Part shown: piece after piece, positions 4,661 through 57,801 of the stretch
Numbering within the stretch: position 1 is the stretch's first letter
How the letters are laid out: each line of letters starts with the position of its first letter
Source of the DNA: Amphiscolops sp. MND2022
Taxonomy: Eukaryota
Length of the DNA stretch: 64,000 nucleotides
Direction of reading: 5' to 3'
Assembly: GCA_964187785.1 (NCBI GenBank)
Contig: OZ076409.1
Span: 8,992,001 to 9,056,000, forward strand
Position numbers and translations under genes: made by a program
Notes under the pieces: generated by a model
Told to the model about the DNA's origin: nothing
The model's input: only the letters and a program-made list of their open reading frames with translations
Database searches by the model: none

Positions 4661-4681
4661 TTGTTTTGATCAAGTGAAGAA

Positions 4682-25942: not shown

Positions 25943-26129
25943 CTTTTGAAAACATAATAAAATCAAAAGAGCATCAGTGTCGTATTCACACGTTAATAGT
26001 GTCACATGTGTTTTGTCATTAAGAATATGTAGTTTCTTCGTCATATTGCATAATACCATCCATTCATACGCTTCTAATCATTGACAATATTAATCCACTC
26101 CTTTGGAATGCATACAGCGAAAACTGCAG

Positions 26130-31008: not shown

Positions 31009-31227
31009 AGAATAAGTCTGGAAAAAACAAGATGACGAATTGAGAGTGTTCTCGCTTGACTTTGGATCTGTGTATTACTAGTTTGTTTTGTTTGTTTCGG
31101 AAGCCTTATTCTATCCGACTATTTACTCATTTAGTTGTATCTTCTTTGAATGAACTGATAATTCGTCTAGTTACGAACTGAAAAGACAGGAAAGAGATAA
31201 GAGAACGACTCTTCTGTGTGTGTTTTT

Positions 31228-36117: not shown

Positions 36118-37775
36118 TCCTTCGACGAGGATTGTTGTTGTCGTTCCATTCTTGGTTTGATTGGTTTTTTAGCTTGTTTATAGTTTTCGATCACCTTTTT
36201 CTGGGCTTCTGTGAGAGTCCATTTAGGTGGTCTATTTTCCATGTTTGCGCCAAAGTAGCAATTTTCTTCATCATGTCCCGGTGTATTGCAATTTTGGAAT
36301 TTTTCAGCATCTGGGTCTTCCTCAAGTTTACGTCGTTTGGCTAATTTGGGGCATTCAGCCATCATGTGGCCTGTCTCTTTGCAGTAACGGCATTGATCAT
36401 TTTTGAAGGTTTTATTCGGTACTGTTTTTGGTGTTTGTGTTTTGGCTTTTTCATTTTGTTTTTTGTTGGTTTTTTCAGCGTTTTGTTCTTTTTTCGTGGC
36501 CGTCATCTGGGTTTTCACCAGGGGTTCATCAGCTTCCAAACCATTTAGCTCCATCTCTCTTTCGAGATGTTTGACGATTTGGTCGTATGTTCCATTTTCA
36601 AGGTATGCTTGATTAATGGACTTTTTAAGGTGGGGAGGCATTTTAGCGTAGAGTAGGTTTTCTATCATCTGATATGCACTCTCTTGGAGTTCCTCTAAAA
36701 AATCTGGAAGTTTCTGGTGTTCTGGGTCAAATGCAAGTCTATTGAATCTGTGCTTAGCTGAGGCACTAGATTCCGGCTTGACATACTTTCTGCGAAAGAC
36801 TTTTAGGATGTCTTCCAAAGTCGTTGTTGGGGTTCGTTGGATATTTTTAAACGTTTTGAGTGCCAAACCTCTGAGATGTGCATGGAAATGGTTGATTTTC
36901 ATTTCCTCAGTTAGGTTTGGTTGCATTTTTAGGGTTGTATGGAACAAGTCTTCAAAGTATTCAAATTTCTCATTTTTCTCATTTTTTCCATTGAAAGTCA
37001 ATGTGTTTTTCGGATGAAACAGTGATGGTTGTGTGTTTTTGTTAGCTAATCGTTCAATTGCAAGTGCAATTTGATTGACTGGGTCAAGTGGTTTTGTTGT
37101 TAAATTTGGCAGATTTTGGTCTGCGTGGAATCCTGCTGTGTCATTTAGTTTTTGTGAACTTTGTCTATGGAGTTGTCGGTTGGCTCCTGTCACCATGTGA
37201 TAATCCTCACCTAGGCTCTCTGCATCAGACTCTTCGTCTGAATGTATAGTTACGTCTACATCTGATTCAGCTCGAAACAAAGGCTTTGCAGGATGTCTAA
37301 GATCTTTCATTTTAGAAGCCCTAAGAGGATAATCGTCATTTTCAGAATCAGAATTTCCAATGTTTGATGCGTGAACTCCATTAGACCTATCTATTTTGGA
37401 TCCCGACGGTTGCTGATCTCTGTTTTCGTTAATTTCTGACCTTGGATTTGTTGCCGTAGAAGCGCTTTTGTTAGACTTTATCTCTTTTAAGATTGTTTCC
37501 AGTTTGTTTTCCATCTCTTCTCTCATTTTTTCAATTCGATCATTATTCTTTTGTTCCATAATTTGGGTCCAGGCTTGAATTTCATTACTAACTACACTGG
37601 GTTCGATCAACTGGCCCTCTGAATTGTTTTCAACTAAATTTTCTTGAACAACCGTATTAGAATTAGTTAAAGTCTCATTACCTGTAATGGGTATTCCTAC
37701 TTGAGTTACTTCCACTTCTCTTTCTGGGGAAGGAGTCTCTAATCTCCTAGATCGTCTATTGCGTTTGTTTCCCAT
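36108..37775 (-). CDS. gag: gag of element A, initiating inside the 5' LTR
   Basis: MGNKRNRR start at 37775; TFNGKNE..FEYFEDLF capsid-like region; CRYCKETGHMMAEC knuckle. Confidence 0.9.
   Translation of the reverse strand: MGNKRNRRSRRLETPSPEREVEVTQVGIPITGNETLTNSNTVVQENLVENNSEGQLIEPSVVSNEIQAWTQIMEQKNNDRIEKMREEMENKLETILKEIKSNKSASTATNPRSEINENRDQQPSGSKIDRSNGVHASNIGNSDSENDDYPLRASKMKDLRHPAKPLFRAESDVDVTIHSDEESDAESLGEDYHMVTGANRQLHRQSSQKLNDTAGFHADQNLPNLTTKPLDPVNQIALAIERLANKNTQPSLFHPKNTLTFNGKNEKNEKFEYFEDLFHTTLKMQPNLTEEMKINHFHAHLRGLALKTFKNIQRTPTTTLEDILKVFRRKYVKPESSASAKHRFNRLAFDPEHQKLPDFLEELQESAYQMIENLLYAKMPPHLKKSINQAYLENGTYDQIVKHLEREMELNGLEADEPLVKTQMTATKKEQNAEKTNKKQNEKAKTQTPKTVPNKTFKNDQCRYCKETGHMMAECPKLAKRRKLEEDPDAEKFQNCNTPGHDEENCYFGANMENRPPKWTLTEAQKKVIENYKQAKKPIKPRMERQQQSSSKDLN
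36111..36117 (-). promoter_or_regulatory. -1 ribosomal frameshift slippery site T TTA AAC at the gag/pol junction
   Basis: Heptamer correctly phased just before gag TAG; the -1 frame is open into pol. Confidence 0.8.
37182..37195 (-). promoter_or_regulatory. Primer binding site of element A (TGGTGACAGGAGCC)
   Basis: Abuts the LTR end; identical in element B; resembles a tRNA-Leu-type PBS (identity inferred). Confidence 0.8.
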
Positions 37776-38721
37776 ATTGCTTTGGGTGAAAATGGTTTTT
37801 GGCTTTTGGGGAAGAATTTGAATTATCTTGTCTACTTGAAATAACAAGACACTAGAGTATCAGCAAATTACCAAAAGGTTTACAGATGTTTGAAGAAGCA
37901 ACTGCACTTGTTGACAGTTCAGGTTTGAATGAATTCTCCTTCAGTTTTTAGAATGAAATAGTTCCAAAAATACCATGACACTCATTTTTACTGCAATCAT
38001 TATTTGGAAAAGACAAAAATAGGATTACGTCAGGGTAACGTCATTCTATTTATAGCATCAGCTGAATTGCATCACGTTCTAAGTATATTTAAGGAAAGGA
38101 CTAGGGAAAACCCTGGAAATTACGTAGAATGCGATATTAAATACATTTAAGATGGTTTCCAAATAGCATTACTTCAGCTTCCAAAGCTATATAGAAGGTC
38201 CTGCTAAAACCGCATAATGACGAGTATACGTCACTACACAATCCGCAGAATACCGCATAGTGTTTCTGCAAAAAAAACGTATAGTGACGAGTATGCGTCA
38301 CTCCTCGAACTGTAGGGTGCCGCATAGTGAATCTTGACAAAAACGCATAATGACGAGTATGCGGTACTGCTCGAACCGCAGACTACCGCATAGTCGTCAG
38401 CACAAAATGGTATTTAAACTAAATTGGGCTAAATAAGAATCAATGTTACGTAACATATTGCTCATCAACACGTGTTTCCTTTACTCTAACTCGGGTTTTA
38501 TGCAATTGTTTGCTCTCAATGACATGTAAAACTAGGCCCTTTTCACATTAAATTGCACAAGTTATTTACATGACTTTCGAAAAAGAGAACAGGCAAAATG
38601 AAAACAAATAAAACAAAATGTTTATTGTGAAAGTTTCACAGTTTTCAGACGATGGTCAGACACACTGTTCGCTTCAACTACTGTTGCTCTCCGGATCCCA
38701 CGCAAGTTCTGGGTTGCGACA
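37196..38721 (-). repeat. 5' LTR of element A
   Basis: TGTCGCA...TCACA on minus strand; CTATAAATAG TATA-like box at 38046-38055. Confidence 0.96.
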
Positions 38722-40186
38722 AATTAAAACTGAAAACATTTTCACTTCTTCATCACGTTGTTTTCACGCGTAAGTTTCTCAAGTAAGGACCTAATGTAAT
38801 CACCGTTAGTCAATAGCACGCTGAATATGACGCTACTATGATGTTTATAACGTGACTGAAGATTCTTTGCACTGAAATCGTGGTAAAATTATTAAGGTCA
38901 CAGCTGCTTTCAAAATTAGAATGGAATCTTGATGAAACCTGCAAAACTTCGTGCCTCGGAATTTCCGCCAAATTTAGGATGCATTTTATAGGCAGCTTGA
39001 TAAAATTAAATTGATTAATTAAAATTTTGATGCATGGAAGTCTCCTGTAGAATTTTATAAAATCATGAAAAATTAGCTTGGTAACCTACAAGTACTTGTG
39101 AAAAGTTCAAGCAGTTTTAACCAAGGTAGTCAATCAACCTTGTCCGTGTAAATCTGAGTATTTTAGCGAGATATAGCGTCTCGACGCCGATGCTTCATAT
39201 ATGTAAACAAAGTTATAGTGTTTTACATAGAATGTCGACCAAGTGCAAGTAACTCAGTAATGTTGGCGAAAATGGTTGCTATCTTGACCTACGAGTGTTT
39301 CAAAGACATAGCTTCTAGTTTCCACCAAGTCTCTTTCCTTTTCTATTCCAAACCACTAAGCATAAAAATATCATTTAAAAAGATCTGCTTGCATTATCAG
39401 GAAAAAATTACAAAAATTAGAAATTGTATGTTTTGCCAAACTTTCCTCACATTTGCACTTTTTCCTGGTTTTCACAAAGTTGAAAATATGTTTTTTTAAA
39501 TAAAAACGTTGGGTCAATCAATAGTCTCCTGAGGATGCTGAAAAGATTTAATTGAAAAACTTTCAAAATAATCATCAAATTCTCAAGTACAATTTTCATC
39601 GATTATCTTAATACATGTACTGCAGGACTCATAGACATTAAACACAGGGTGTTTTTTTCTGATTCGAAACAACATGTCGATCAAAACAATTCAGCAGGTT
39701 CGGGATTTTATCAGGAGTCCCAAAAAAATTTCAAAAATTTTCGATTGTAATGTACTTTTTTCGAACAAATCCAGATTTCAATTAAAATTTTTAAAAATGT
39801 TGCATTTTCAAACTTCAGTATGGAACGTAAAACTTTCAAACAAACAATGTTGTACACTAGATATAATTCCAAGAAAATTTCGTGGCTGTTCAATTTTTGT
39901 TTTCTTGATAGTTTACGATATATATTATTTTGAAATTTGCTATTTTAAGCAAATGAGGATACTATTTTTTAGAACGCTAGGGTACGCATATCACAATAAC
40001 ATAGTCATCATCACACTGCGTTTTTTTCCGTAGTTCACTCCTCCAGCTAAACAATAGATGAAATCAACAAGCTAGCAGTAGGCTAGGAATGGAAAAAGGA
40101 TTTGTTTTTCATGCTCAACATGAAAACCTCAGTTTCATCTCAAACACACTGCTTTTTTAAAATTTCAATTGTTTTCATACCCGAAC

Positions 40187-40266
40187 TTTTAGTATACCCA
40201 TATTTTGTACCCGTATATAATATGAACCAAAATCTTTTGGGAAATTCGGAATTTGGAATCGTGTAA
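40187..40266 (+). repeat. 5' part of an interspersed repeat split by element B (continues 56754-56902)
   Basis: Joined halves match the uninterrupted copy at 58452-58702. Confidence 0.8.
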
Positions 40267-41903
40267 TGTCGCAGGCTGCCGCCTGTGACGGCAATTACTA
40301 CCAAATCCCTTCAGTAGACGATCTATCTAACCCCCCGCCAGGAGTATTCCCTATTTAGAAGGTTTGACAACAATGGACCGATGGTACGGACGGCCTCACT
40401 CAAATTGAGGCAAATATAGAAGAACTGCGTCCAAAACATAAAGGACCTTAGGTCGATACGGCCTCATCAAACAATTGTGTTAAAATTAATCACAAAACAC
40501 TCTACTTTATAAAATTTACCGTTGCTTAATATTATAGTTAGTTTGTGCTTGATTTACTTGTTGATTATTGTTGAAATAGTAATGTACCAAATGAATTGGA
40601 ATTAGCAATGTAAAATGATCAATTTGAATGATGTATTAGAATGCAATTGAAGCGCAGTAAGGAAACGTGTTCAAATGTACTGTTGTTGTGGCTGATTGTA
40701 CGCAACGTCGAGTGCTATATTAACCAATCAAATCGAACTAGCTATACAATTGGTGACGCCGCATGGACGTTACGTCCGATTTGGCGTAATTGCCAATCAC
40801 GCTGTCTGTGATTTTTCTAATGACATGAAGTGTTAATATTGGAAATATAAACATGTAAATAGCATATTCAGGCATAATAAAATTCCTCCATGCGTATTTA
40901 TATGACATCATAATCTCCAGCTACAACCCTTAGCTGCTTCTCTTTGATGCTATTTTTGTCCTTACAAACATGATGAAATAGTGATGTAATGTCCCTAGAA
41001 CTGTTCCAAAACCCCATCTATTGCTATTTTTAGAACCATGACCCGCATCATTCTGTGTGTAACCCCACCCAAACTATAAATAGCGGGAACATTGGAGAGC
41101 AAGGACCAAAACTTTCACAATCTTGATACAAACAAGTCGATATAATATTGTCACAATACTGAACTTTGAGTTTAAAACTCTGCTGATTCATACTTTGCTG
41201 ATTTGGATTATCTTGTTAGTTGATATTTACAATTGACTGTGAAACTCAAATCCCCTTCTCATGCCTTCCACGAGAAAGCAAAAGGCTAAAGAAGGTCGTT
41301 CTAGACAGTTAGACATGCTGTCCGATGTAGAAAATGTTGACATAATGCTTGGAAGTTACTCTAGGGAAGATGAAGAGAATAATGTTAGTGAAAATGAAGT
41401 GAATTTGGACTTAAGGTCTAGCAGACCACAACAAAGCTCAAATGTTATAGGAGAAGACTTTAGGTCCTTGCTTAATACCAACAGCAGGGAAAACAGTGAA
41501 ATCACAATTTAGACTTCTAGGTTGATAAGCGAGGAAATTTCCAATCAAATGTCTAGAAAACTCAATGAAATTAAAACTGGTTTGAATTCCCAAATTAAGG
41601 ATGCAATTACAGCTGCAATAACAAGTACAGTGCTTCCTTCCATCCAAAATACACTAGAAATGCAGGGGATACCTAATTTCACCATGGTGGACCGGGAGTC
41701 CAACGGGCCACATCCTAGCCCAAGGTCGACCGATTTCACATTAAAGGACCGAAGGTCCAGTGGGCTACAATGGAACGCCGAAGTAGGAAATTTGCAGAAA
41801 ACATGGGAAAATCGTTCTAGAACATGTTTTACACAGGAAAATAGTAGACTGAGGTCTAGAGAGAGTTCAACAAACTCTATAACTAGCGAACAAAATCGCG
41901 ACA
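40267..41903 (+). repeat. 5' LTR of element B
   Basis: TGTCGCAGG...TCGCGACA; CTATAAATAG at 41074-41083; copy at 55118-56753. Confidence 0.96.
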
Positions 41904-43027
41904 TGGTGACAGGAGCCAAACCTACCCCACATATGGTTCCCGAGTTTCTCACTGGACGTCCCATGCTATCTCGAGATCCCCTGCAACGTCAAAATTCCAA
42001 CAATGACGAGTCTCAGGATACAACTCCCCAGGTCCCTGAGACCACAACACCAACTATTCCTTCTGATCCCAATAACCGTCTTGCAGAAGTACTAGTCGGC
42101 ATGAACAACCGTCCATCAGCACAAACACTGATGGTACGCCCAGTCAGCACGAGTACACTGACTTTCGACGGCAAATCAGAGAAATTCGAACTTTTTGAAG
42201 ATCTCTTTCACACAATGATAAAAATGCAATCTGATATGACCGAAACGATAAAAATCAATCAATTTCATTCACTGTTGCAAAAAAATGCCCTGCAAACTTT
42301 CCGTAACATCAATACGGCAAACAGGCAAACATTGGAAGACATTCTAGCTGTATTTCGTCGGAAATACGTCAAACTTGAGTCCCAGGCGACTGCCAAACAC
42401 AAATGACACAGATTGGTGTTTGATCCAAACACCATGAAACTACCCGACTTCCTTGAAGAATTAAACCAAGGAGCTGAAAAAGCGTTTGGCGAGAACGCCC
42501 AGGCCATGATCGATAGTCTCCTCTATGCCAAGTTGCCGCCAAAATTGAAACGCTCCGTCAATATGGCTAGACTTGAAAACGCCATCTATGAGGAAATTGT
42601 CACCCATCTAGAACGAGAGCTTGAGCTCAATGGACTTGAGGAGGGGGACGACATTCCAGTACCAACAATGTCCACTGCCCCTACAGCAACATGACCGGGA
42701 ACTGGCCTTCTTTCCTCTGGCATTGACCCAAACATTACTTGCAACTATTGCAAGAAACCTGGACATGTCAAAGACGATTGTCGCAAACTTAAAAGAAAGG
42801 AGGAACAACGCCGCAACGACGGACAGGTTACCAAGGAAGAATATCCAAAATGTCCAACTTGCGACAGAACGAACCACCCGGCGGAAAGATGTTGGAAAGG
42901 CGCTGGAGCCCACCTCAAGCCCAAAAACCTTAAACTGGATGACACCACGGCCACCGATAAGTCCACCAGCCAAGAAGACGCGAAAAATAAACAAACCACG
43001 TCCATTTTAAAGAATCCAAAAAACTAG
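41261..43027 (+). pseudogene. gag: gag of element B, initiating inside the 5' LTR; in-frame stops
   Basis: MPSTRKQK...RDMVTGA...TFDGKSEKFELFEDLFHT...HLERELELNGLE; knuckles CNYCKKPGHVKDDC and CPTCDRTNHPAERC; stops at ~41510, 42404, 42692. Confidence 0.9.
41904..41917 (+). promoter_or_regulatory. Primer binding site of element B (TGGTGACAGGAGCC)
   Basis: Abuts the LTR end; identical to element A. Confidence 0.8.
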
Positions 43028-46000
43028 TTTGCCACGACTCCAAATACATGAAAAACTCCGTGTACGACAGTACATAATATCCGACCCTCCAAATATATAT
43101 TACACTGAGTTTCATACAGCTCTTAAAGAAACTTCATCAGCTGACTGGCAGCAGCAGATGAAAACTCCACCTAATTTTCTTACCACTTCGGACTCTATGT
43201 CCAACAGACTACAAACTGATACTACTACTATACGACTTATACCCCTCATTGATGACTATAACCCATACTATCCTGACCCCGACTATGGTTTTGACCCCTA
43301 CTGGGAGGCTAACTGCTACAATCAACATCATCTGTACTTCTACCACAATTTTGACAAACAGAACTCGAATATAGAACCAGATTCTTTTGAAACTGACCAA
43401 GCCCTAAATACAGTTCTTACCAAAGCACGAGTTGACCCATAGCAACATGGCGCACAGCTCGCCCATCAAACCACTCACTCCAAAGTCGGTGATGAATTTC
43501 ACCATGAGGGACCACATAGGTCTCCTTGGCCACAGCCGTTGCGGCACGCTATGTGAGCACCCTGGTCACCAGAACAGGGGAACCGGACTGTGTGCCGCTG
43601 ACTACCAATCTTGGCCTCAAATACAAACGACGAATGCTCTACTTTCCAATGGATTTTGGCGAACTAACACTAGATGGCCTTGTAAACACGGGAGCTCTAT
43701 CTTGCGCAATCCCTGAAGCTGATCTACGTAAAATCCAATTATTAGCCCCTCAGTCTATTATTAAAAAGGGTCCAGCTCCCAACTTCCAAATAATGGTTGC
43801 AAACGGACAGCTGGAAAATCCTAAAAGCACCGTCGAATTGAAATTTGAAGTCGGCGACATAGATTTCGATGAAATCTTTATAGTCATGGAGAAACTCACC
43901 AGTCCATTAATAGGTCTTTCCATCCTTCAAAGGAATAACACCATTTTGGACATGCGACAAGGCGCCCTAAATTTTCCTTTCTTCTCAATGCAGCTCAAAA
44001 CTGCAGATCACAAATATATAAATGTCATGGAACCCATTTGCATTAGAGAGGATGTAACCATCCCACCTAATGACCGACACTCGGTCCTCATGGCTTCACA
44101 ACTGTACGAGGATACTACAGTTACCAGGATCCTTCAACCGAGCAACACCCTTACGGATGATGGCGACATTGCTTTCTGTGCTGCTCTGGTCACATTGACC
44201 AATGGTCAAGTATCCGTTCACCTGAACAACTCTACCGACAGTCCCTATACCCTCAGAAGAGGTACACAAGTTGCTAATTTAACTGTCCTTACACCGGAAC
44301 AGATGAAATATGTCAAACCTATTGACCCGGTGACCACATGGCACCTTTTGCAGGACAATCCTGAAAACGCTGCTTACTACGCAAGCAGCTTGATCAAATC
44401 TACTAAGCCTGAGGACTTCAAGGAAAACTACTGGTTTCCAACACCAGAGGACCCTGGGGACCCTCAGCATCATACCCCGATTCAAAAACGGATTTTGTCA
44501 GAACTGATCAATCTCCAGGAATTGGAAAACTTTAATCCTCAGGACGACTCAGGACGTCAATTCCTATCCAATTTTGATTGGACAGATTCTATGCTTCAAC
44601 CTGCTGAGATAGCCCGCATAGAAGACCTACTTGTTCAATTCCATGATATATTCGCAAGACATCGTTTTGATATTGGCATGAACGAAGACTTCAAGGTCAA
44701 ATTGACCCCGAAAGATGACTCTCCGGCCTACAGTCAAAGTTTACCAACCCCAATTAACCTCAAAGAAGACATCCTTGTGGAACTAGCCTTACTACATCGC
44801 TATGGGATTATTACAACACTTCCATTCTCGACATTGCTTTCTGTGCTGCTCTGGTCACATTGACCAATGGTCAAGTATCCGTTCACCTGAACAACTCTAC
44901 CGACAGTCCCTATACCCTCAGAAGAGGTACACAAGTTGCTAATTTAACTGTCCTTACACCGGAACAGATGAAATATGTCAAACCTATTGACCCGGTGACC
45001 ACATGGCACCTTTTGCAGGACAATCCTGAAAACGCTGCTTACTACGCAAGCAGCTTGATCAAATCTACTAAGCCTGAGGACTTCAAGGAAAACTACTGGT
45101 TTCCAACACCAGAGGACCCTGGGGACCCTCAGCATCATACCCCGATTCAAAAACGGATTTTGTCAGAACTGATCAATCTCCAGGAATTGGAAAACTTTAA
45201 TCCTCAGGACGACTCAGGACGTCAATTCCTATCCAATTTTGATTGGACAGACTCTATGCTTCAACCTGCTGAGATAGCCCGCATAGAAGACCTACTTGTT
45301 CAATTCCATGATATATTCGCAAGACATCGTTTTGATATTGGCATGAACGAAGACTTCAAGGTCAAATTGACCCCGAAAGATGACTCTCCGGCCTACAGTC
45401 AAAATTTACCAACCCCAATTAACCTCAAAGAAGACATCCTTGTGGAACTAGCCTTACTACATCGCTATGGAATTATTACAACACTTCCATTCTCTAAGTA
45501 CGCAAGCGCCCCATTTTTGCACAAAAGAAACCCAATGGCAAACTGCGACTTTTAGTTGACTTGCGTAAAATAAACAACTTGATGTCGGATGATTACATCA
45601 ACAATAACCATCCAGTAAGTACGCTTACAGACTCGGCCCAACATATGGCTGGGAAAAAGCTATTCTGTAAGTTGGACTGTTCGCAAGCTTACCATTGCCT
45701 ACAAATGGCGGACCAACGGTCCATTGAAATGCTTGCTTTCAATTTTGCCAGCAGAACTTTCGTGTACAGAAGATTGGCACAGGGTCTCAGCAGAGCCCTA
45801 TCGGCCTTCTCTAGTTTCATGCGCGAATACTTGGACAAAGTCATCAAAGCAGACCAATGCACCCAATATGTTGATGATATTGGCATTGCTGCTAACGATG
45901 CTGAACAACTCATCAACAAACTGAGGGCCACATTCCAATGCATACAAAAAGCTGTTCTCAAGCTAACGATGCATAAATGCCATTTTGGCGCAACGGAAAT

Positions 46001-48525
46001 CGACTTTCTGGGACGCACCATCACTCCTGCTGGAGTGAAGCCGCAGAGACCACGGGTCCAAAATTTCCTAGAAAATACGAAATTCCCGAAATCCAAGAAA
46101 GCACTACAGCGTTACTTGGGATTTTTGAAGTATTACCGAAACTACATCCCAAGACTGTCAGAAAAACTAACGCTGTTTTCAAACTGCTCACTAAAGATGA
46201 AAAAGTCCTGGTAACACCGGACCTATTGGAAAAATTTACCGAGATAAACAAGGCTCTTGATCGATGTTGCGAACTGGCACTCAAACAACCCTTACCGAAT
46301 AAGCAAATAGCCCTTATGACCGATGCCAGCTTTTCGGCCGCAGGGTACGCAGTCCTCATCGAAAACGATCCACTCGAGAAGTACACTTCTACGAGGAAAG
46401 CTTTCGCCCCAGTAGCTTATGGTTCCAAGACCTTTAGTCCTACCCAATTGAAAATGTCCATCTATGCCAAGGAATTCTTAGCAATTTTCTTTGCCTTCAA
46501 GGAATTTGGACATATCTTTTGGGGAACCCCAAAACCGGTGATTATACTCACAGACAACAAGTCAGTCACACGATTTTTTCAAAGTAAAATTATTCCGCCG
46601 ACATTATGGAATGCTTGTGATTATGTGATCCAGTTCAACTTCACAAAAGCTCACATCCCCGGCAAAAACAACACAGCGGCTGATTACCTGTCACGCCTGG
46701 AGATCTCTCCAAAAGAGAAATTAATCCTCAGAATCAGAGAAGATATTCCTACAATACCGATCGAACTACATGTCCAATCGGCCGGAGTTTCGAAAGAGGA
46801 ACAAACCTTCTACACAGAGGATGATGACGAGACAGAAGAACAAATTTTACAGCGTAAAAAAGACGCTAGGGACCATCCATCAAATCAATTACCTGATATT
46901 TCATTCGAAAAATTTACTACACACAAAAGTGACTATCACAAACTCTCCACGCTTCAAAAACTATCCTGCACGGACTCTATAGCAGTAGAGCAAAGCAACG
47001 ACGTCATTTTGCAACAATTGCGCCTAAAAATACTAAAAGAAAGCTATTCTGAGACCATCCTCCTGCAAGATACTCGTTACCAACATTACTGTCGCCCAAT
47101 GGACCGACTGTCCGTTATGGATGAAATTATTATTAGACAGTATTTTGATGAAACAGGAGCTGTCAAATACAATCAAGTGCTTTTACCTAAACATCTGGTA
47201 CATGAACTACTTGAATCCCTACACGGCAAAACTAATAAACACCCTGGAATATCCAAGATGCTCGTCGAAATTCGCCAAAAATATTACTACCCTGGCATTG
47301 CAAAAATTGTTAAAAAATGGGTTCAAGGATGCGAAATTTGCATTGAAGATAAAAGAGACCCAAACTCATCCATAACTCCCGAATTGCTTAACTTGCCTGA
47401 ATGGGACTTAGGTCCGGAAGATGCAATGCAAATTGATTTGTTATCGAACCTGCCCCCCAGCGGAGGTTCTGAAAACATCATAACTGCAATGGATGTGTTT
47501 TCAAGATATCTTTTTGCATATCCAGTTACTGACGCTTCGGCCACAAATACGGCAAAGGTTATTATAGACATAATGACCAAACATACCTATTTGCCTACTA
47601 CCTTGATCACGGATAAAGGGACGGCTTTTACGTCCAGACTGGTCGCCGTAGTAGCTCAAATTCTCGGAATTCACATAAAATGCCCAACTACCAAACACCC
47701 GCAAACAATTGACAAATTAGAACGTACCCATGCTGGTCTCAAAACAAACCTCAAGATGGCCTCAGGGGACTACAGGCGACAGTGGCACAAATATTTGCCT
47801 TTAGCCGTATTAAATTATAATACGACCTATCACGCTACCCTAGGTTGTGAACCATCTAGAAGATTTCACGGACGAATTCCGTATAATATATTGGATCACA
47901 AATTGGGCCTTAATCCAAACCCGAAAGTCCTACCAACTACAGACTTTGCAGATGAATTTCAGCGCCGGACGCAAATTTTGCTTGATTCAACAAAGAAAAA
48001 CATTATGCAATCCTATTTGAAGTACAAAGAATATTACGACCGGACGATGAAATTATTATTCCGCAAGATGACCTTTATGTCATCACTTGGGATACCAATT
48101 TTGGTGAATTTCCCAATTCCACTGAAGAAACCGCAATTCCTACATGTCGAGAAGCGCTAGACACTTCTAATGATTACGCAAACAATACCAGAGCGCCGGA
48201 CGAAATTTTCACCGACGTGGACGTTACGTCCCCCGGGCCTCAAGAAAATGACGCCAGAGCGCCAGACGAAATTTTCACCGACGTGGACCTTAGGTCCAAC
48301 GGGCCACACGAAAATGATGAATTCGCTCCGCTTGAAAAAACACGTTCAGAACGCATAAATGATGGGATTGACGATCAACAATCGTCAGGAGGGAGTGATA
48401 CTATCGTGCCCGAAATATTAGATGATGAAGACGATATGATTGTAAAAAACGAAAGCCCCAGAGGAGGGAAATATAACCTACGACCTAACCCCACCCCCAA
48501 CTTTACCGACGAATACATATATTAG
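43018..48525 (+). pseudogene. pol: pol of element B, with frameshifts, an internal duplication and an integrase C-terminal deletion
   Basis: A AAA AAC slippery site at 43018-43024; LVNTGA (catalytic D>N); QYVDDI; MTDAS; HPGISKM..CEIC; ITDKGTAF; shares terminal KYNLRPNP with A. Confidence 0.93.
44164..45494 (+). repeat. 665-bp tandem duplication in element B pol
   Basis: CGACATTGCTTTCTGTGCTG at 44164 and 44829; at least 3 substitutions between copies. Confidence 0.95.
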
Positions 48526-48711
48526 CCAGAATTGTAAATTAACTGTCCCGAATAAACAATTGCAGAATAATATCTTTGCGGGACTTGACTGAATAAAAGA
48601 CAAAGAATACAGTAAAAAACAGAACACTAAATAGAATCCCAAAGTGTCTATACGAAAAGTTTTAGAAGCACTGTACAACAAACTAAAATGACAATTGTAC
48701 ATATGGTACAA

Positions 48712-51700
48712 TTAAGACTTATCTAAACTAGCATTTAAACGCTCAGCGGACTTGTTTAGCTCTTCATCTGAAATCAAGTGACTACGCCTCTTCCCTGGCT
48801 TTGGCACCATAAACGACGATGAGGCTTTACTGGTACTAGGGGCATCCTCTGCGGCGGAGACCTTCGGGCCTTTGGGCGTCACACTATTGATGACGTCAAT
48901 GATCTCAGCCCATCCAAACTTATCCAAGTCACTCCAGGGACTGTAAGAGTCCCTTAGCCCAGTTGACCCAAAGGTCGGTTCCGGAGCGAGAAACTTGGAG
49001 ATCGAAGACTGAGATGAAAACTTCTGCCCCGCGGGCAACATTGCCGAGGTACGATTGCAATGATGTAACAACATCGAACATTGGACTTTTTGGGTCATCA
49101 GTATGGACTGTCCCAAACTTGACAGGGGGAAAGGAGACGCGAGGATCATCTAGACAAAGACAACTGAGTCTGAAAATCCTCATGAGATAAGGCCGAGACC
49201 TGTAGGATTCTTGTCCACACACAAACTCAATAACGTCAGGAATACAGGAATAAGCAATTTTGGCTGGGAGATGTTGGTGTGAAGTTTGCGGAGTTCGTCA
49301 AGAAATGAGAGATACTCTTCGAAGTAAACCGTCTCTTCGTCTGCCAGCAACACACCTCGCAATCGGAAACTGGTAAACAGCTCCTTGAAACAAAAGGTCG
49401 CCAAAGATATTGGGTCGACCAACATCACGTCCAAATCAAAAGAACCCAGTCCTCTCACTATATCGCTGGTGAATCTCTGGAGCTTCTGAGCAGTGCCGAA
49501 TAGGGTGACTACATAACTACGAGCAGTGCGTCCAAAATCAGCTTTTATGTTCTCTGTAACTTCAGCTAGAGTCAGCTTTTCGTTTTTCTTCTCACTCATC
49601 TCGGCTTCCGCTTTCAGCTTGCATGCAGTTGCTAGTGTTTCGCTCAACCTGGACCGGGACAGGAAGTCAGCTACTGACAGAGCCTTAGTGTCAGCCATAA
49701 CGAGACTGTAGACCCCGGGAAAATCATTTTCTTCAGGAATGCTGCTGGAACTGACGCAACGTCTGCCCAGCTTGAAGAGATATTGACCTAGCTCTCGATA
49801 CACATGGAAGCCTCGATCACGGCGCGTCTTGAGATTTGGGGTGAAACTGCTGGTGACTATAAAAGAAAGAGTGAAAACTTTGAACCCAATAGTATATGGC
49901 GAAACTATGAATGGCAACACTAACAATCGCGCACTAATCGGTAGAACAACTCGAGTCTACTCGGAAAGAAGTCGTCGTAAACAAGAGACCATTCTAAGCT
50001 CTGGGGCTGAAAAGAAACATTCAGTTGAGATACTGCATTGGACCGTAGGTCTAAGGAGCCAGAGAACTCTTACTTGTTTGCGGACTCCTGTGCCTTCTTG
50101 GGTAGGGGTGCTTTTCGACAAGAAAGCAACCACTTTGCTCCAGTGACGCAACAGTTCTTGGCAGAGGACTGGTAGACCATTGATGTCCAATTGGCATGAT
50201 CTAATTGCCTGAAAACAAAAGAAGGGCTCCGTCTAAAACCCTCGGATCTAGATGCAAAGAACAAAGTCTCAAACCAACCTTCGACAATTCAGGGGACACC
50301 AACATTCAGTCCTGATCTAGACAGCCTCCCAGGCACACGATGACAAATTGCACAACTGAGAAGAAGTCTATGTTTCCGAACACACTGTACCCCTTCTTAT
50401 GCATTATGGTCTTCAAAGACAGCTCTTCAAAACGGGGGGGGGGGGGATTTTGGATTCCATAAGCTGAGGGCTTTGGATTCCATAACCAGATGCGTAGGGC
50501 ATTGGTCCAGCAAGACGATAGTTCAGTGCGTTGTTCCAGTACAACTGACTAAGTGGGGCTTCGTTGAGAATATGCCCATGACGTTGGAAACAAGCCTAAC
50601 CTCAGCTTGCTTGAGTGAGGCCGAGGAGACGTCCGGTCCTTTTCAAGAAGACCCTAAACAATTGGTCATCACGCCAATATCGGATAAATACCAACAGAAA
50701 AACACCTTCTTGAGCGAATTCCAATGAATACTCAGAGGCAGCGACGACATGGCTTCCAATGTCATTCATCATCTCAAGGAATAAGTGATGGAAGATGACC
50801 TATAACACAATCTTGCCTTTCATGTCAGAATTTAACTAGTAAGGCGACCTCGCGTAGCATGAGGCTGAAAGAACCTTAGGTCCACTACAATACTCTAACA
50901 ATGTACCCGTCTGAGTAAAGTGAAAATACTAACTGAAAGTCTTTCCCTGCTCCAATCGAAATCTGTGAACAGTGCCTGGTGGTTCACAATCACACCCACG
51001 TCGCTCCAGAATCCTTTGAGCACATCAATATTCCCATAATGGGTGAGAAATCGGCACAGAATGGAAATCTGAATTTTTGCCCGGTCGCCCGAAGAAGATG
51101 CCATGTAATCAGTACCCGCCATGAATTCGTCAAAAAATGGAAGCTTCTTGCCGATATCCACCAACGGTACATCCTTGAACTTTGAGTATTCTAACTCCAG
51201 CTGGTAAGGTGTGAGGAGTTTGCCGTCTTTACCCCTGACTTGATGAACAACTTTGCGGGTAACTGGGTCTACCTTGGATAGATGCTCGAACCTCCACCTT
51301 TGGTCTTTCCTCAAGTGCTTTTCGGTAGAGTGGTGTCGCAAAATTTCTCGGGCTCCCTTTCCATATTATGATATGTTTGCCTTGCAAATTTGGCAATAAA
51401 ATTTGTAAGGGTTCCATCGCAGATCGACTGGCCCTGACACAAAAGTCTTCGTCCACTCCATACCTTTAAAATACGCCTCCTTCATGATCTTACAGGAGCG
51501 AGTAATCGGCCTCCTAGTACGTCCTCTCGATGCGGGAATGCGTCGGTTGCTGGGCTTGCCCCGACTTGAACTCTGATCCTGTAAGGCTTCTCTTTGTAGC
51601 GCTGCAAGGGTCTGAGATCCTGGACCATTGACGCTGAACTCTAGGTCAGGGGACGCTTGGTCATTAGAGCCACACCCAGGAATGAGCTGTGCAGTAGGTG

Positions 51701-53270
51701 GTCTGCCAATTATTTCAGTTTCGGAGTGCTCATATGCGTAGCCAAAACTCCCGAAGTCGTCATCACTACGGATACCACCACTAGTGTCACTTCCCGCTTC
51801 AATTTCGGATTCGCCTTCATCAGATCCCTGTGAAAGGCTACGTACGTTGGACCTGCCTGGTACCGAGGTATTTAAGCTAAGCCTGCTGGCACGGTATACA
51901 AGATTCTCGAGCATGTCGTAAGAAGCCCTGGCAGTCTCATCGGCTACGATCCTCAGTACGCTAGATATCTGATCTTCAGTCAAGGCTATGGTAGAGTGAC
52001 CTCGAAGCAACTCAACCGGTTCAGTTTTAGCAAAATACTCTTTCAAAAGAGCTCGGCTACTGACTTTTAGCGGTTCAGGTTTACCAGTTGGAGCAGGAGG
52101 TAAACTTGCTGATTGACTGGAGGCTTTGTCGACTTCTATCAAGGGATTGTACCTCCCGGAAGTTAGGGCATCGGCCATGGTAGAACCACCTGCATTAGAT
52201 GACTCAGCATCGGTCTCAAGCCCATAATCAGAACTGCTACCCATTCGGATCGGTTGCTCTGATTCACCAAAGCCATGATGGAGACCAATAGATGTTGTGG
52301 AAGGAGCTATGGAAGGCTCACTATGAATATCGTCCTGCAAAGTTGGGCGCAAGGGAGTAGCAGGTCGTACTAATTTGGCTCTTTTCTTAGAATTCCCAAT
52401 GGCAGAGGAATTGCTTGAAGCCGAGTACGCTGTAACAGTATCTAAGAATGCCACAGCAGGAACCTGATGAAATTGTCGGTCTGGTCGTTCCTTTTGCTCT
52501 TGGCCAGGAAAGACAGTTATTAACTCACTTTCACTCTCCTTCTGGGAGGCATCATGGTCTGCTAGGGTTCCCTCCTCGTTGGTCTCAGTACCCAGTTCTT
52601 GCATTTTGCGAGTGAAAAATGCCTGGCAGCTCTCATTCGATTCGCTTCCGTCAGAACAAAGCAGCTGAGACAAAGGCGAAACCTCTGTTGGAGTCTGATC
52701 TTGGCTAATCCCAATTTGCATGACTTCTGCTTGAACATGCTGGCTACTGGAAGGGGCTTCATGAATCTGAGGCTGACTGGACTCAGTGTCCATGGCTTCA
52801 GTCATTGGCTGGTCCTTCTTGGGAAGTTCTGATGTCTGAGGCTGACTGGACTCAGTGTCCATGGCTTCAGTCATTGGCTGGTCCTTGTTGGGAAGTTCTG
52901 ATGTCTGAGGCTGACTGGACTCAGTGTCCATGGCTTCAGTCATTGGCTGGTACTTCTTGGGAAGTTCTGATGTCTGAGGCGGGCAGAGCTCAATGTCCTT
53001 GCCCTCTGCTATTACTCGACTGTTGCTATGCAAGGGGTCGGGAGCCTGTAATTGTCTGACCTCGTTCTCTTTGATTTCACTCGACGATTGTTGACTGCTG
53101 GTTGGAAAATCATGAGCAGTATCAGGGATTGAAAATTCGTTCCTGTCAGCCTCTTCAACCTCAGCTAATTTCTGAGTTGGTTGGCCGTTAGTCTCTTGTT
53201 CTAAATAGAAAGAGATAAATTTACGCGGTGTACTTCCTGAATATGAATCCATTTTGCCGCATTTTGACAT
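48712..53270 (-). pseudogene. Spliced antisense accessory gene of element B, homologue of A 26640-31008, with frameshifts (first exon not resolved)
   Basis: YKFYCQICKANIS...LRHHSTEKHL; donor after WSRERLS (50934); acceptors at 50799 and 50208; SDIVRGLGSFD matches SDLIRGLSAFD in A. Confidence 0.78.
52766..52980 (-). repeat. 69-bp coding tandem repeat (~3 copies) in the antisense gene
   Basis: Peptide PQTSELPKKDQPMTEAMDTESSQ repeated. Confidence 0.92.
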
Positions 53271-54374
53271 TCTTCCGGAAGTAAGTTATGTTCAAATTAA
53301 TGTTTCAACGTGAAAACATTTAAAATGGAGGAAGTGAATCTAGTCAAAAGTTGAACCCTGATCAAGCTCAACTTAGACACAATTAAAGAACCAACCTGAT
53401 GCTATCTCCATAGTGGGGAAACAGAATTCTTGATCGGAATAGCTGTCGAAGGAGATGCGTTTGTAACCTGCTCAGGTTAGAGAATCTGGATAAACAATTG
53501 ATTGAGGCCAGGGAGGCTGTAGGTCCTCGTGTTCTGTTCACTCCGATGGCGAGGGAAGCGCTTTGAACGAATCGATGAAGTAACCAGTGAAAGTAACTTG
53601 TAGTTAGAGAAATGACGACGGTTGGGATTACTGTACCTCAAGCACTTATACTTTCATTCGTATATCATTCACAAACACTCACCTGTCTACCCTTTTTACC
53701 CAACTAGACTAACAGTCTAACTAATACTATTGAGACTTTTATTAGACGCTAAATTACAAATGGATGTCGTGGCTAGTACATTAGCAATTAGTTACCATTC
53801 ACTATCATTTCATTTCATTATCACATTTCTCATGTCTTGAACCTGCCAGTGAAAGCCATGAAGTTTCACTTTATTTCGCAAATAAAAGGTACAACTCAAC
53901 TACGTTCTTCATAGTTTTCATCTCCTTTACCATATTTAGTTATTCATTCGGGCGAATTATTAGTTAATGAAACGCCATTAGTCTTATCGTGAATGAGGCC
54001 TGCCGGACCGTCGGTCTTTGATCGAGTTATTGTTTACCAGTCTTTAACATTGGTAAACACTCTTACTGGGCAATTAACAACTCACAAGTTGTTAGACAAA
54101 TACGATGATAGGCCTTCAAGGACCAATTGAGAAGCTTTTCAGCTGACTTCTGATACTATTTATGAAAACTTATAACTTTACTTAAAAAGAATCCGAGGAA
54201 AATCTGAGGGAACTCCAGGTTTTGTTACCCCGCTTAAAATTTCCACAAATTTATTGAAAGTGGACCTGAGGTCTGTCGGGCTAGAGCAAATCATTCAACT
54301 CAAATCCTTACTACGATCAAGCAACACAATTCAAAATTGCCAAAAAACCTATTCTGGGAAGATATCTAGCTGAG

Positions 54375-55218
54375 ATGTCACTACAATTTAATGTAGAAGA
54401 ATTCATCCGACCGCTAGTGAGCGAAGTTTATAATTCTTCTGACGAGGATATGGAAGTGGACGTGCTTTCTATACCAAATTACTCCCAACAAGACGATGGG
54501 TGCGACAGTGATATTGAAATTATAGCGTGCTATAGAGAAGTCCCCGATGTTCCCACCACAACTAGCAGGAGGACGCGCAATGACGACCGAATTTGATGCT
54601 AACGAGTACGACCTAACTCAATCGCAATATGGACAACCCGGATCAGTGGCGTCAACCACGGATCCATCCGATAGCCTGATTGAATGGTTTGTTGGGAACC
54701 CACCCCAACGAACATATAAAGAGGGAGACTCGCGGCACCAGATTGTTCAGTGTAGTGGATTGGAACCAGTACCTTATTCCCCATTGTCACCACCGTTAGA
54801 GGAACAAGGACCTTCAGTCGCACAGTATTATGGTGAATACCCTGAAGAACAAGGTCAGGAAAGTGAATGGATTAAAAACCCCCACATTTCCGGGATGACA
54901 ATTAGTGCGAGCGGAATTTGTGGAACCCCCAACTATATCCAATATGGAGGATGTACAGTGTGTGGTAAGTCTTACTCGGCTATTCAAGAAGAGATTACTT
55001 TGGGATATTTAGAGAAAACACACATCCCTGAGGAAAACTACATTCAAAGGATTCGCAGGAGAAATTCTTTTCAAGCCGGAATGAAAGCCGGCAGTGTGAT
55101 TCTAGTCCCAGGGGGAGTGTCGCAGGCTGCCGCCTGTGACCGCAATTACTACCAAATCCCTTCAGTAGACGATCTATCTAACCCCCTGCCAGGAGTACTC
55201 CCTATTCAGAAGGTTTGA
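54375..55218 (+). pseudogene. Element B 3' accessory ORF with CxxC domain, probable frameshift near 54545, ends inside the 3' LTR
   Basis: ORFs 54375-54596 and 54547-55218; GGCTVCGKSYSAIQEEITLGYL...RNSFQAGM. Confidence 0.75.
55110..55117 (+). promoter_or_regulatory. Short polypurine tract of element B
   Basis: AGGGGGAG directly before the 3' LTR TG. Confidence 0.6.
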
Positions 55219-56753
55219 CAACAATGGACCGATGGTACGGACGGCCTCACTCAAATTGAGGCAAATATAGAAGAACTGCGTCCAAAACATAAAGGACCTT
55301 AGGTCGATACAGCCTCATCAAACAATTGTGTTAAAATTAATCACAAAACACTCTACTGTATGTAATTTACCGTTGCCTAATAATATAGTTAGTTTGTGCT
55401 TGATTTACCTGTTGATTATTGTTGAAATAGTAATGTACCAAATGAATTGGAATTAGCAATGTAAAATGATCAATTTGAATGATGTATTAGAATGCAATTG
55501 AAGCGCAGTAAGGAAACGTGTTCGAATGTACTGTTGTTGTGGCTGATTGTACGCAACGTCGAGTGCTGTATTAACCAATCAAATCGAGCTAGCTATACAA
55601 TTGGTGACGCCGCATGGACGTTACGTCCGATTTGGCGTAATTGCCAATCACGCTGTCTGTGATTATTCTAATGACATGAAGTGTTATTATTAGAAATATG
55701 AACATGTAAATAGCATATTCAGGCATAATAAAAATCCTCCATGCGTACTTATATGACATCATAATCTCCAGCTACAACCCTTAGCCGCTTCTTTTGATGC
55801 TATTTTTGTCCTTACAAACATGATGAAATAGTGACGTAATGTCCCTAGAACTGTTCCAAAACCCCATCTATTGCTATTTTTAGAACCATGACCCGCATCA
55901 TTCTGTGTGTAACCCCACCCAAACTATGAATAGCGGGAACACTGGAGAGCAAGGACCAAAACTTTCACAATCTTGATACAAACAAGTCGATATAATATTG
56001 TCACGATACTGAACTTTGAGTTTAAAGCTCTGCTGATACATACTTTGTTGATTTGGATTATCTTGTTAGTTGATATTTACAATTGACTGTGAAACTCAAA
56101 TCCCCTTCTCATGCCTTCCACGAGAAAGCAAAAGGCTAAAGAACGTCGTTCTAGACAGTTAGACATGCTGTCCGATGTAGAAAATGTTGACATAATGCTT
56201 GGAAGTTACTCTAGGGAAGATGGTGAGAATAATGTTAGTGAAAATGAAGTGAATTTGGACTCAGGGTCTAGCAGACCACAACAAAGCTCAAATGTTATAG
56301 GAGAAGACTTTAGGTCCTTGCTTAATACCAACAGCAGGGAAAACAGTGAAATCACAATTGAGACTTCTAGGTTGATAAGCGAGGAAATTTCCAATCAAAT
56401 GTCTAGAAAACTCAATGAAATTAAAACTGGTTTGAATTCCCAAATTAAGGATGCAATTACAGCTGCAATAACAAGTACAGTGCTTCCTTCCATCCAAAAT
56501 ACACTAGAAATGCAGGGGAGACCTAATTTCACCATGGTGGACCGGGAGTCCAACGGGCCACATCCTAGCCCAAGGTCGACCGATTTCACATTAAAGGACC
56601 GAAGGTCCAGTGGGCTACAATGGAACGCCGAAGTAGGAAATTCGCAGAAAACATGGGAAAATCGTTCTAGAACATGTTTTACACAGGCAAATAGTAGACT
56701 GAGGTCTAGAGAGAGTTCAACAAACTCTATAACTAGCGAACAAAATCGCGACA
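55118..56753 (+). repeat. 3' LTR of element B (contains an intact 215-aa gag N-terminal ORF, 56111-56758)
   Basis: Copy of 40267-41903. Confidence 0.96.
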
Positions 56754-57801
56754 TGTAATATTAGCGATCATATGTGGAAAGATGCGGCGCATTTAACTAA
56801 GAAACTAATTTCTTCCGTTCATTGATTTTTTGTCGTTATTCCGAACCATAGTCTGTGTTTGTATTATATCAATATTTGTTTGGGTCTTTCCTATTTTCCC
56901 TCCTAGCTTCCTGGATCAAAAATTTCTGAATCCCAAAAACAAATTGAATTAATCATTTCATAAGTTGGAAAAGAACGACGACCACCACAAATTTGAGTTC
57001 TTGATATCTTCGTGAAGGAGCAGGTCCAATTGACTCCCGAAAGAAGCCAAGGAGTCGAAACAGCGAGCAGTTGTAAAAAGGTGGCATTCTTTAGCGCACT
57101 AATCCATCAAGGTGTGTAATATACAGTGCTGGTTGAATACTTCGTTGTTCACGTGTTGTCTTTAGAGTATCTTTTCCCTTTTCTGAATCCAGATTGAAAA
57201 CAGTCACTTCCGAAAGCTTTTCATGTACATTCACATTTGGCAGATGTTGCCGTTATCAAAGTAAAACGAATATTTTGATGGTACAACCAATGCTTTCTTT
57301 CAAAGAACGTCGCATGTTAGGGCTAGGCTTTCTCAACAACCACAAAAATAAAATGTATTTTACGTTCAAATGAATACTTAGGGTCAGTTTTTGCCGAGAG
57401 TGTCAAAACAGCTATGAAGACAACTTTTCAAGTATTTACATTCTGGAAAAAAGTTTTCAAAAAGCAAAATGAGCTCTCGTTTTGGGGGAAACTCGAAACA
57501 AGGGGTACCTTGGGGGGAATAAGGCACATGATACAGAAGCGCAACCTAACAGAATTAACAAGCAGATATAAATGTGAGTTTGTTTTGCTTCAAAAGAAGT
57601 AAAATCTAAAACGAAACACAGTGTTATGAAGGATAGATTTGTATCGCTTAACTAGAACTAAAACCAAAAAGGAACGGAATGTGATAGGACATAGATTTAT
57701 GGGGAAATGAAATGACAGATTCAAAAATTGATTTAAGCAGTCCTCGATTATCCGGGTCCTTTCAAGTCCCTACTAATTTGTCAAGCTCTTATAGTTTTGC
57801 A

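Follow-up and report, generated by a model that had tools for sequence, protein, structure and literature searches.

A 64,000-nucleotide stretch of the genome of Amphiscolops sp. MND2022 (contig OZ076409.1, positions 8,992,001 to 9,056,000 of the forward strand; hereafter the window) contains two Ty3/gypsy long terminal repeat (LTR) retrotransposons, A and B, each of which carries a gene with predicted introns on the strand opposite to its own gag-pol. Did this antisense gene, introns included, descend from a common ancestor of the two elements or did it enter them separately, and what keeps it there? A preliminary description of the window had proposed that its intron positions are conserved between A and B in spite of low protein identity. 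The analysis reported here, which drew on the genome behind the window (1.07 Gb, 13 large contigs), makes it likely that an animal Ty3/gypsy clade carries a spliced antisense accessory gene that was inherited from the common ancestor of A and B and is under selection.

Shared introns in the antisense genes of A and B

A and B lie side by side in opposite orientation and are each about 16.5 kb long. Both are Ty3/gypsy LTR retrotransposons by their LTRs, target-site duplications (TSDs), primer-binding site (PBS) and order of pol domains (Table 1). Both LTR types start with TGTCGC and end with CA, and in both elements the Pfam domains follow the Ty3/gypsy order zf-CCHC, gag-asp_proteas, RVT_1, RT_RNaseH, Integrase_H2C2, rve. 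The PBS TGGTGACAGGAGCCAA occurs twice in the window (chance expectation, 0.01), the second occurrence being the site of B. Since the pol DNA of A and B is 64.5-67.9% identical, they represent related yet distinct families. In both, the antisense gene is located between pol and the 3' LTR, in a stretch of unusual length (A, about 7.6 kb; B, 6.6 kb) with tandem-repeat arrays.

The gene comprises six exons in A-like and five in B-like copies, with a predicted product of about 1,000-1,300 amino acids and an exon 5 of about 330-390 codons. Introns 1, 2 and 3 are in phase 0 and intron 4 is in phase 1. At intron 1, WSEQRVF is followed by the donor GTAAGT in A and WSRERLS by GTTAGT in B, and the introns end with TTTTTTCAACAG before GILVYMF in A and with TGTGTTATAG before VIFHHLF in B. 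Intron 2 is placed after LPTLHK in A (28963) and SPELSK in B (50279), and the reading resumes with CVIRLEY (29027) and AIRSCQL (50208), respectively. All six peptides named in the preliminary description were found exactly where, and on the strand on which, it had put them. Its two introns common to A and B also hold, as the junctions read as claimed; the count, on the other hand, had to be corrected to four by adding the introns after exons 3 and 4. The additional 5' exon of the A-like gene (ATG, MD[SP]...RRSRK...DDFW, ending in phase 1 before GT[AT]AG) was found in 9 of 13 A-like copies, and in B-like copies the start is a conserved Met within exon 1. As the N-terminal parts of the two types are unalignable, intron 0 is not comparable with B. 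Two candidate structures were rejected: a model with four exons, in which a phase clash at the supposed intron 3 exposed the 27-codon exon 4, and an exon containing a conserved FLKRFRF... stretch upstream of A exon 1, in which some copies carry stops and whose conservation is at the level of DNA. In exon 1 of B a 69-nt coding unit (PQTSELPKKDQPMTEAMDTESSQ) is tandemly repeated about three times (52766-53013 (-)).

To compare the two types, open reading frame (ORF) pieces of A and B were aligned and found to be collinear over the exon 1 tail (E 3e-8 and 1.6e-5), exon 2 (E 0.003), exon 3 (E 0.008) and the last exon (E 9.5e-6 and 2.4e-4). Profile-profile alignments of A-like and B-like copies matched the exon 1 C-terminus with 97.5% probability (E 7.5e-12; positions 81-239 to 72-239 of 240), exon 2 with 97.0% (E 9.5e-11; 3-162 to 3-162 of 162) and exon 5 with 96.8% (E 2.9e-10; 7-206 to 8-228), and exons 3 (13-34 to 13-34, P 5e-4) and 4 (1-18 to 1-18, P 7e-3) were in register but weak. 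MAFFT aligned exon 2 of both types without a gap, and protein identity between them was 19-20% over exons 2-4, position by position, and about 19-25% overall. The start of exon 5 differs by one codon in length between A-like and B-like copies; intron 4 is nevertheless considered homologous because its phase, its split codon (T/AT, T/AC or T/TC) and the length of exon 4 agree. Every one of the four comparable introns would thus lie on the same codon and in the same phase, which we infer to be far beyond chance. The profile-profile alignments showed neither insignificant similarity nor introns at non-homologous positions, so that the claim of homologous positions despite low identity stands. In view of the shared position and orientation, the collinear homology and the coincidence of four introns, the ancestor common to the A and B lineages probably already possessed the gene, introns included, and the gene has since diverged together with the elements.

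Copies across the genome, selection and intron loss

The genome was searched with the exon 1 tails of both elements. With that of A, all 150 scored places matched (59-100% identity) of 6872 first-look candidates, and 129 of these 150 contained no stop; with that of B, all 150 scored places matched (69-100%) of 5347 first-look candidates, these candidate numbers not being copy numbers. The clade carrying the antisense gene is therefore large and diverse, with thousands of first-look candidates in the genome. A sample of 25 copies was assembled from A, B and 23 full-length regions, 12 of the A-like type, with 59-75% identity to A, and 11 of the B-like type, with 69-95% identity to B. When searched exon by exon with tblastn, the matches ended exactly at the proposed boundaries in every copy, and all five coding exons were present in 25/25. 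The C-terminus of gypsy pol followed directly after the last exon, in antisense, in all 23 additional copies, and the gene was tail-to-tail with pol in 25/25. By these results the gene appears to be present in most copies of the lineage and not to be a one-off transduction.

The splice sites were then tallied. Intron 1 was present in 25/25 copies (68-147 nt), with GT in 25/25 and AG in 24/25, the exception being GG in L050. For intron 2, found in 24/25 (63-132 nt), GT was kept in 23/24 (TT in L051) and AG in 24/24. Intron 3 (25/25, 66-192 nt) had GT and AG in every copy, and intron 4 (23/25, 65-744 nt) had GT in 23/23 and AG in 22/23 (TG in L053). Overall, both dinucleotides were kept at 94 of 97 introns, with lengths of 63-744 nt, and read-through was blocked by stops or by the frame in 23/25, 23/24, 24/25 and 23/23 copies for introns 1 to 4 (93/97 in total). 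Exon lengths were fixed to a large extent: exon 2 measured 486 nt in 20/25 copies, the others having indels, and exons 3 (135 nt) and 4 (82 nt) were of constant length in 25/25. With their GT and AG ends, polypyrimidine tract, variable length and interruption of the frame, the predicted introns fit the spliceosomal GT-AG type.

Database searches for relatives of the antisense protein returned 244, 238 and 191 proteins at E ≤0.001, all of them ENA ORFs without names, one being identical to a copy analyzed here. Database ORFs spanning exons 2-3 were considered as intron-less forms and rejected after reading showed in-frame read-through of intron 2. Of 246 pattern matches in JGI metagenome contigs, none was confirmed, and an extended protein search with the last exon of A found nothing.

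Divergence between copies was analyzed by codon position. Nonsynonymous differences (pN) amounted to 0.05-0.29 versus saturated synonymous differences (pS) of 0.75-0.95 in 72 of 73 within-group pairs; the remaining pair was nearly identical. L058 and L059, for example, are identical at 89, 97 and 51% of first, second and third codon positions, and five other pairs are alike. Comparisons between lineages gave about 90-97% identity at second codon positions and about 40-51% at third positions. At the DNA level, the exons of eight within-group pairs were 66-87% identical with few gaps, the introns 46-74% with many gaps. These comparisons of coding sequence show strong purifying selection on the predicted antisense protein, and this protein, and through it the splice signals, is visibly maintained by selection. 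As a transposon gene is selected only through how well its element succeeds, the lineages that left descendants would be those in which the protein worked.

Copies from which introns have been removed exactly were found in two branches. L063 is without introns 2 and 4, its exons 2 and 3 being fused in frame (...SPELSK/AIRTCQ...), and L062 is without intron 4; in both, exons 4 and 5 are fused and the formerly split codon reads TTC in L063 and TAC in L062, as predicted. The form without intron 2 occurs at five loci on five chromosomes with 98-100% identity, and the next relatives (90-91%) match exon 2 only. Eight ENA ORFs (67-100% identity) cover exons 4-5 unbroken. In the phylogenetic tree the A-like and B-like groups were each supported by 100/100, and L062 and L063 were placed at the base of the B-like group with a support of only 82/70 for their separation. 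With the A-like copies as outgroup, loss is the simpler reading, requiring one event if L062 and L063 are sisters and two if they are not. Since introns were exactly removed in sublineages that then multiplied, these copies argue for the existence of a spliced antisense RNA and for its occasional copying back into an element. This could occur by a template switch to the spliced antisense mRNA during second-strand synthesis or by recombination with a cDNA of that mRNA.

The predicted protein and the origin of the gene

To understand how such a gene could be carried, its orientation has to be considered. As exploited in antisense-intron retrotransposition reporters, an element replicates via its sense RNA, in which the introns of an antisense gene read CT...AC and stay unspliced. 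Unspliced CT...AC introns would be copied into each new insertion, and only the antisense orientation would let a retroelement stably carry an intron-containing gene. The preliminary description had also deduced long-term selection on splicing from the shared sites; long retention and shared descent are borne out, but selection on splicing as such is not required, because introns that are invisible to the spliceosome in the sense genomic RNA are copied by default and their fixed positions need not mean selection on splicing. The gene itself would be transcribed from an internal promoter in the 1.3-2 kb gap that separates it from a divergent sense frame, ORF3, and would then be spliced and translated. 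In view of the strong purifying selection between element lineages, the most likely role of the protein is to promote, in trans, the propagation of the element itself.

The predicted protein was examined for known domains. Exon 1 encodes a basic stretch followed by an invariant C-x2-C-x16-H-x5-H finger, a spacing that we take to resemble that of BED fingers; in Pfam it gave only a sub-threshold C2H2 match (22.9 bits, cut-off 27). No Pfam family was found for any single exon, for 140 members covering exons 2-3 or for 138 members covering exons 4-5, nor was TRP28 (Transposase_28, PF04195) detected in any Pfam scan. An AlphaFold model of exons 2-3 (L063, alignment of 140 rows) had a mean predicted local distance difference test (pLDDT) score of 64.8, with blocks of 73-87 over residues 1-100, where helix, three strands, helix, strand and helix follow each other in an RNase H-like pattern. 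The best Foldseek match was the Hermes hAT transposase (4d1q_A, E 0.011, probability 0.82), and four more Hermes entries were among the matches, none reaching E 0.001. Among named ESM Atlas clusters the ten best were all DUF4371, FAM200-ZBED5 RNase-like or DUF659 (about 0.81-0.86), scores below 0.9 being leads only. Invariant residues of exon 2 are F7, E9, Y24, W42, R57, D133 and L160.

A hAT derivation has to be set against several results. No hAT profile (DUF4371, DUF659, Dimer_Tnp_hAT, zf-BED) matched at E up to 1 in the 140 and 138 members, with a library that may lack PF27073; a PDB sequence search with three profiles matched no chain; the ESM Atlas gave nothing for exons 4-5 (scores ≤0.80); and predicted strand 1 lacks an invariant acidic residue of the kind expected of conserved DDE catalytic residues. 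A search of this genome for DUF4371 found none, but control genomes also gave none, so that this result has little weight. The product can be described as a predicted nuclear zinc-finger protein with an RNase H-like domain, probably derived from a hAT transposase and without the conserved strand-1 acid, which beyond the finger motif is a weak lead from modelling. That it is hAT-derived and catalytically silent appears about as probable from the models as the opposite, and our guess that it acts as a DNA-binding regulator or targeting factor rather than as an enzyme is similarly balanced. Taken further, the clade may have taken in a hAT-type transposase gene with its introns and kept it as an obligatory spliced antisense gene whose catalytically silent protein guides or regulates the element, a scenario that we put forward tentatively and with somewhat more doubt than belief.

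Several observations weigh against an inherited antisense gene under selection, and against how far it can be generalized. The 23 additional regions were picked from 300 listed rows for identity spread and long open frames, so intactness is overestimated, and the survey covers one genome plus ENA assemblies with identical proteins. The antisense gene of A has all six exons open and canonical splice sites, but pol of A is broken by an in-frame TGA (34350-34348) and TAG (33090-33088). The antisense gene of B is a pseudogene. Its exon 1 contains an in-frame TAA (51368-51366), its exon 2 measures 521 nt versus 486 in relatives (net +35 nt) with four indels near 50613, 50500, 50492 and 50446, and its exon 5 has three indels near 49253, 49204 and 49011 when set against a relative with 95% identity over the exon 1 tail. 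B still has all eight splice dinucleotides, and in its close relatives exon 2 is intact with 162 codons; as B is dead, selection was deduced from these intact relatives. Neither AATAAA nor ATTAAA was found within 500 nt past the stop codon of the antisense gene in 23/25 copies (in the window, 31006-31600 (+) and 48100-48714 (-)), and the transcript may run into pol antisense or use another signal. Distances of the antisense protein and of the pol tail were not correlated among A-like copies (r -0.05, 1125 of 2000 permutations as high) and moderately so among B-like copies (r 0.37, 19 of 2000). Strict co-divergence is shown only at the A-versus-B level. Recombination between lineages within groups is likely, or else the pol tail, being short and in part of low complexity, serves poorly as a marker.

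Could the gene have been acquired independently, an intron-bearing DNA transposon or host gene having landed separately in the ancestors of A and B, so that the introns reflect the structure of the donor? The possible derivation of the protein from a transposase would suit this, as would the many true hAT elements in the genome (150/150 scored Dimer_Tnp_hAT matches of 2215 candidates) and the uncoupled distances within the A-like group. However, slot, orientation and tail-to-tail spacing are the same in 25/25 copies, and the antisense protein lacks a hAT Pfam domain. No terminal inverted repeat (TIR) of at least 10 bp with a target duplication surrounds the gene, there being no inverted match in A and one in B, whose 8-bp flanks agree at 4/8 positions. 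Between groups, the distance of the antisense protein (0.79) is about as expected from that of the pol tail (0.61). Together with the shared introns this makes separate insertions very unlikely, in line with the argument of the preliminary description against an independent DNA transposon in each element. The decay of copy B, the lack of a recognisable poly(A) signal and of a known family could also mean that the gene was captured once and is a useless passenger, its frames being open because the copies are young and its introns being unspliced. Such saturation of synonymous sites next to conserved second positions would be impossible without selection on the protein, the splice dinucleotides were kept while intron interiors align near chance, and exact intron deletions need a spliced RNA; we regard this explanation as improbable.

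A function at the RNA level was considered as well, in which the antisense transcript would matter for control by double-stranded or small RNA and coding would be secondary. The transcript is complementary to the genomic RNA and, without a nearby poly(A) signal, may run into pol, and PMC7264820 discusses other elements for whose antisense RNAs roles of this kind have been proposed. The codon-position pattern, the fixed exon lengths and the conserved finger residues indicate constraint on a protein, to which an RNA role could only be additional, and we judge this possibility to be quite improbable. Inheritance of a protein-coding, spliced antisense gene from the common ancestor of A and B is therefore the reading that we prefer.

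Features of the window and comparison with known systems

The coordinates of both elements and of their antisense genes are collected in Table 1.

Table 1. Positions of elements A and B and of their antisense genes within the window.
Feature	Position	Strand	Remarks
Element A, Ty3/gypsy LTR retrotransposon	22076..38726	(-)	including TSD
A LTRs	3' LTR 22081-23606; 5' LTR 37196-38721	(-)	pair 1527 bp aligned, 99.15% identical
A TSD	22076-22080 and 38722-38726		TAATT, perfect 5-bp duplication; ends TGTCGC...CACA
A PBS	37180..37195	(-)	TGGTGACAGGAGCCAA, immediately after 5' LTR
A gag-pol	31228..37859	(-)	CCHC knuckle, aspartic protease, reverse transcriptase, RNase H, integrase (Pfam)
A sense ORF3	23563..24609	(-)	just before 3' LTR, runs into 3' LTR
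A exon 0	26640..26754	(+)	ATG, MDS...; donor GTAAGC, phase 1; intron 0, 26755-27036
A exon 1	27037..28397	(+)	basic stretch, C-x2-C-x16-H-x5-H zinc finger; ends WSEQRVF/GTAAGT
A exon 2	28478..28963	(+)	162 codons; beta-beta-beta-alpha-beta RNase H-like core predicted in relatives; intron 1, 28398-28477
A exon 3	29027..29161	(+)	45 codons; intron 2, 28964-29026
A exon 4	29234..29315	(+)	27 codons + 1 nt, PNTLDECFRLD...; intron 3, 29162-29233
A exon 5 with stop codon	30005..31008	(+)	intron 4, 29316-30004, contains 33-bp tandem array
Element B, Ty3/gypsy, related to A	40262..56758	(+)	including TSD
B LTRs	5' LTR 40267-41903; 3' LTR 55118-56753	(+)	pair 1639 bp aligned, 97.7% identical
B TSD	40262-40266 and 56754-56758		TGTAA, perfect 5-bp duplication
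B PBS	41904-41919	(+)	identical to that of A (TGGTGACAGGAGCCAA), adjoins 5' LTR
B gag-pol	41513..48525	(+)	several shifted frames; internal tandem duplication of 666 bp (44164-45494)
B sense ORF3	54526..55218	(+)	just before 3' LTR, runs into 3' LTR
B exon 1	50934..53252	(-)	Met at 53252, MDSYSGS...; ends WSRERLS/GTTAGT
B exon 2, broken	50279..50799	(-)	521 nt; intron 1, 50800-50933
B exon 3	50074..50208	(-)	45 codons; intron 2, 50209-50278
B exon 4	49925..50006	(-)	27 codons + 1 nt, PQSLEWSLVYDD...; intron 3, 50007-50073
B exon 5	48712..49856	(-)	intron 4, 49857-49924

In both elements ORF3 lies head-to-head with the antisense gene and has no obvious membrane segment. The ORF3 C-termini of A and B are 33% identical over 64 amino acids (E 4e-7) and share the motif C-x2-CG[RK][ST]Y...EI..YL; no Pfam family was found for either. 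In both elements an open frame extends from within the LTR over the PBS and into gag (36108-37859 (-), 41513-42406 (+), 56093-56758 (+)), and the basic N-termini encoded inside the LTR, MGNKRNRRSRR... and MPSTRKQKAKERRSR..., are alike.

Element A contains tandem arrays of a 33-bp unit (TCCGCATAGTGACGTATAGTCGTCA...) in both LTRs (23091-23279 and 38206-38394, period 66), just upstream of the antisense gene (26156-26274) and inside intron 4 (29591-29809). These units hold TGACG half-sites and could serve as enhancers or binding sites common to all these places; judging from their translations, other A-like copies seem to have similar arrays in intron 4. Two near-perfect tandem duplications with lengths that are multiples of three, 687 bp (99.1%) in the gap between ORF3 and the antisense gene of A (24572-25942) and 666 bp (99.6% identical) in pol of B, could be real or effects of the assembly. 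A 66-nt coding unit occurs twice, in tandem, in the C-terminal tail of B pol (48188-48317 (+)). The DNA flanking B resembles a stretch about 1.8 kb downstream (40127-40267 versus 58410-58558 and 56754-56902 versus 58553-58702; 73% and 86%), and the site in which B inserted may have been a copy of another repeat.

Elsewhere in the window, a third LTR element (3362-9920; LTR pair of 946 bp, 98.5%) has DUF1759 gag and DUF5641 integrase-tail domains and is of the BEL/Pao type. To our knowledge, BEL/Pao elements are confined to animals, and this one accordingly points to a metazoan genome. Of two further ORFs (12237-12956 (-) and 2435-3184 (+)), one has a double jelly-roll-like domain (PF21738, E 1.8e-7) and the other matches Endonuclease VII below the threshold; both may be left over from a virus-like element, Polinton/Maverick-like or other.

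The protein was compared with hAT-derived DUF4371 and FAM200-ZBED5 proteins and with Hermes, with which it would share an N-terminal BED-like C2H2 finger followed by a predicted beta-beta-beta-alpha-beta RNase H-like core. In contrast to these, it has no Pfam or PDB sequence match, no conserved strand-1 acid and no transposon ends, and it is carried inside a retrotransposon. If the hAT reading is true, the intron losses would show that spliced antisense mRNA is occasionally copied back into the element during reverse transcription.

HBZ of human T-cell leukaemia virus 1 (HTLV-1), an exogenous retrovirus, is a spliced, nuclear, regulatory basic leucine zipper (bZIP) protein whose gene has its promoter in the 3' LTR and one intron. 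Like it, the gene described here encodes a protein on the antisense strand, at the 3' end of an element that replicates by reverse transcription, with splicing and a nuclear, regulatory role predicted. It differs from HBZ in that it would need an internal promoter, encodes an unrelated protein and has four to five introns. Antisense genes of HTLV-1 (HBZ) and other deltaretroviruses are mentioned in PMC7264820 and PMC11963269.

Among retrotransposons, PMC7264820 describes antisense ORFs between pol and the 3' LTR in the plant elements Grande, RIRE2, Retand and PvRetro13 and in the fungal element Boty. For the plant ORFs (Grande gene23, RIRE2, and Retand/Tat with a TRP28 domain) a regulatory DNA-binding role is suspected (PMC7264820, PMC11963269). 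The gene of A and B resembles those of Grande, RIRE2 and Retand in slot and orientation, in its occurrence in most copies of the lineage and in the long region with tandem arrays between pol and the 3' LTR. It differs from the plant ORFs in its animal host, in the lack of a TRP28 or other Pfam match, in its much larger size and in its four to five introns; the word intron occurs 0 times in the main texts of PMC7264820 and PMC11963269. In fungi, the Boty-like Ty3/gypsy elements found in Botrytis and Sclerotinia carry an antisense gene named brtn (Zhao et al. 2011, as cited in PMC7264820). By this citation, brtn is likewise an antisense accessory gene in the gap between pol and the 3' LTR of Ty3/gypsy elements, but its hosts are fungal. 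The only animal examples in the available part of PMC7264820 are non-coding antisense RNAs, and no animal counterpart was found in the literature searched, which included part of PMC8220671 and left most subscription journals and Repbase reports outside.

The layout is hence of a known kind. Within the reach of the searches, its novelty lies in an animal host, in an unrelated protein of much larger size, and in four to five introns whose positions are fixed and some of which have been lost exactly. As the gene is large and deeply sampled, selection at the protein level is clear, and fixed introns across about 80% sequence divergence and their exact losses can be followed. The gene thereby lends itself to testing how an intron-containing gene is carried and kept by a retroelement. 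It may also bear on the role of accessory proteins and on the recruitment of a DNA-transposase fold by a retrotransposon. For annotation, gene finders will call thousands of these genes as host genes or as prokaryote-style fragments, as the ENA ORFs without names illustrate. Taken together, antisense extra genes have been known for plants and one fungal group, and the same layout is now seen in an abundant and diverse clade of animal elements.

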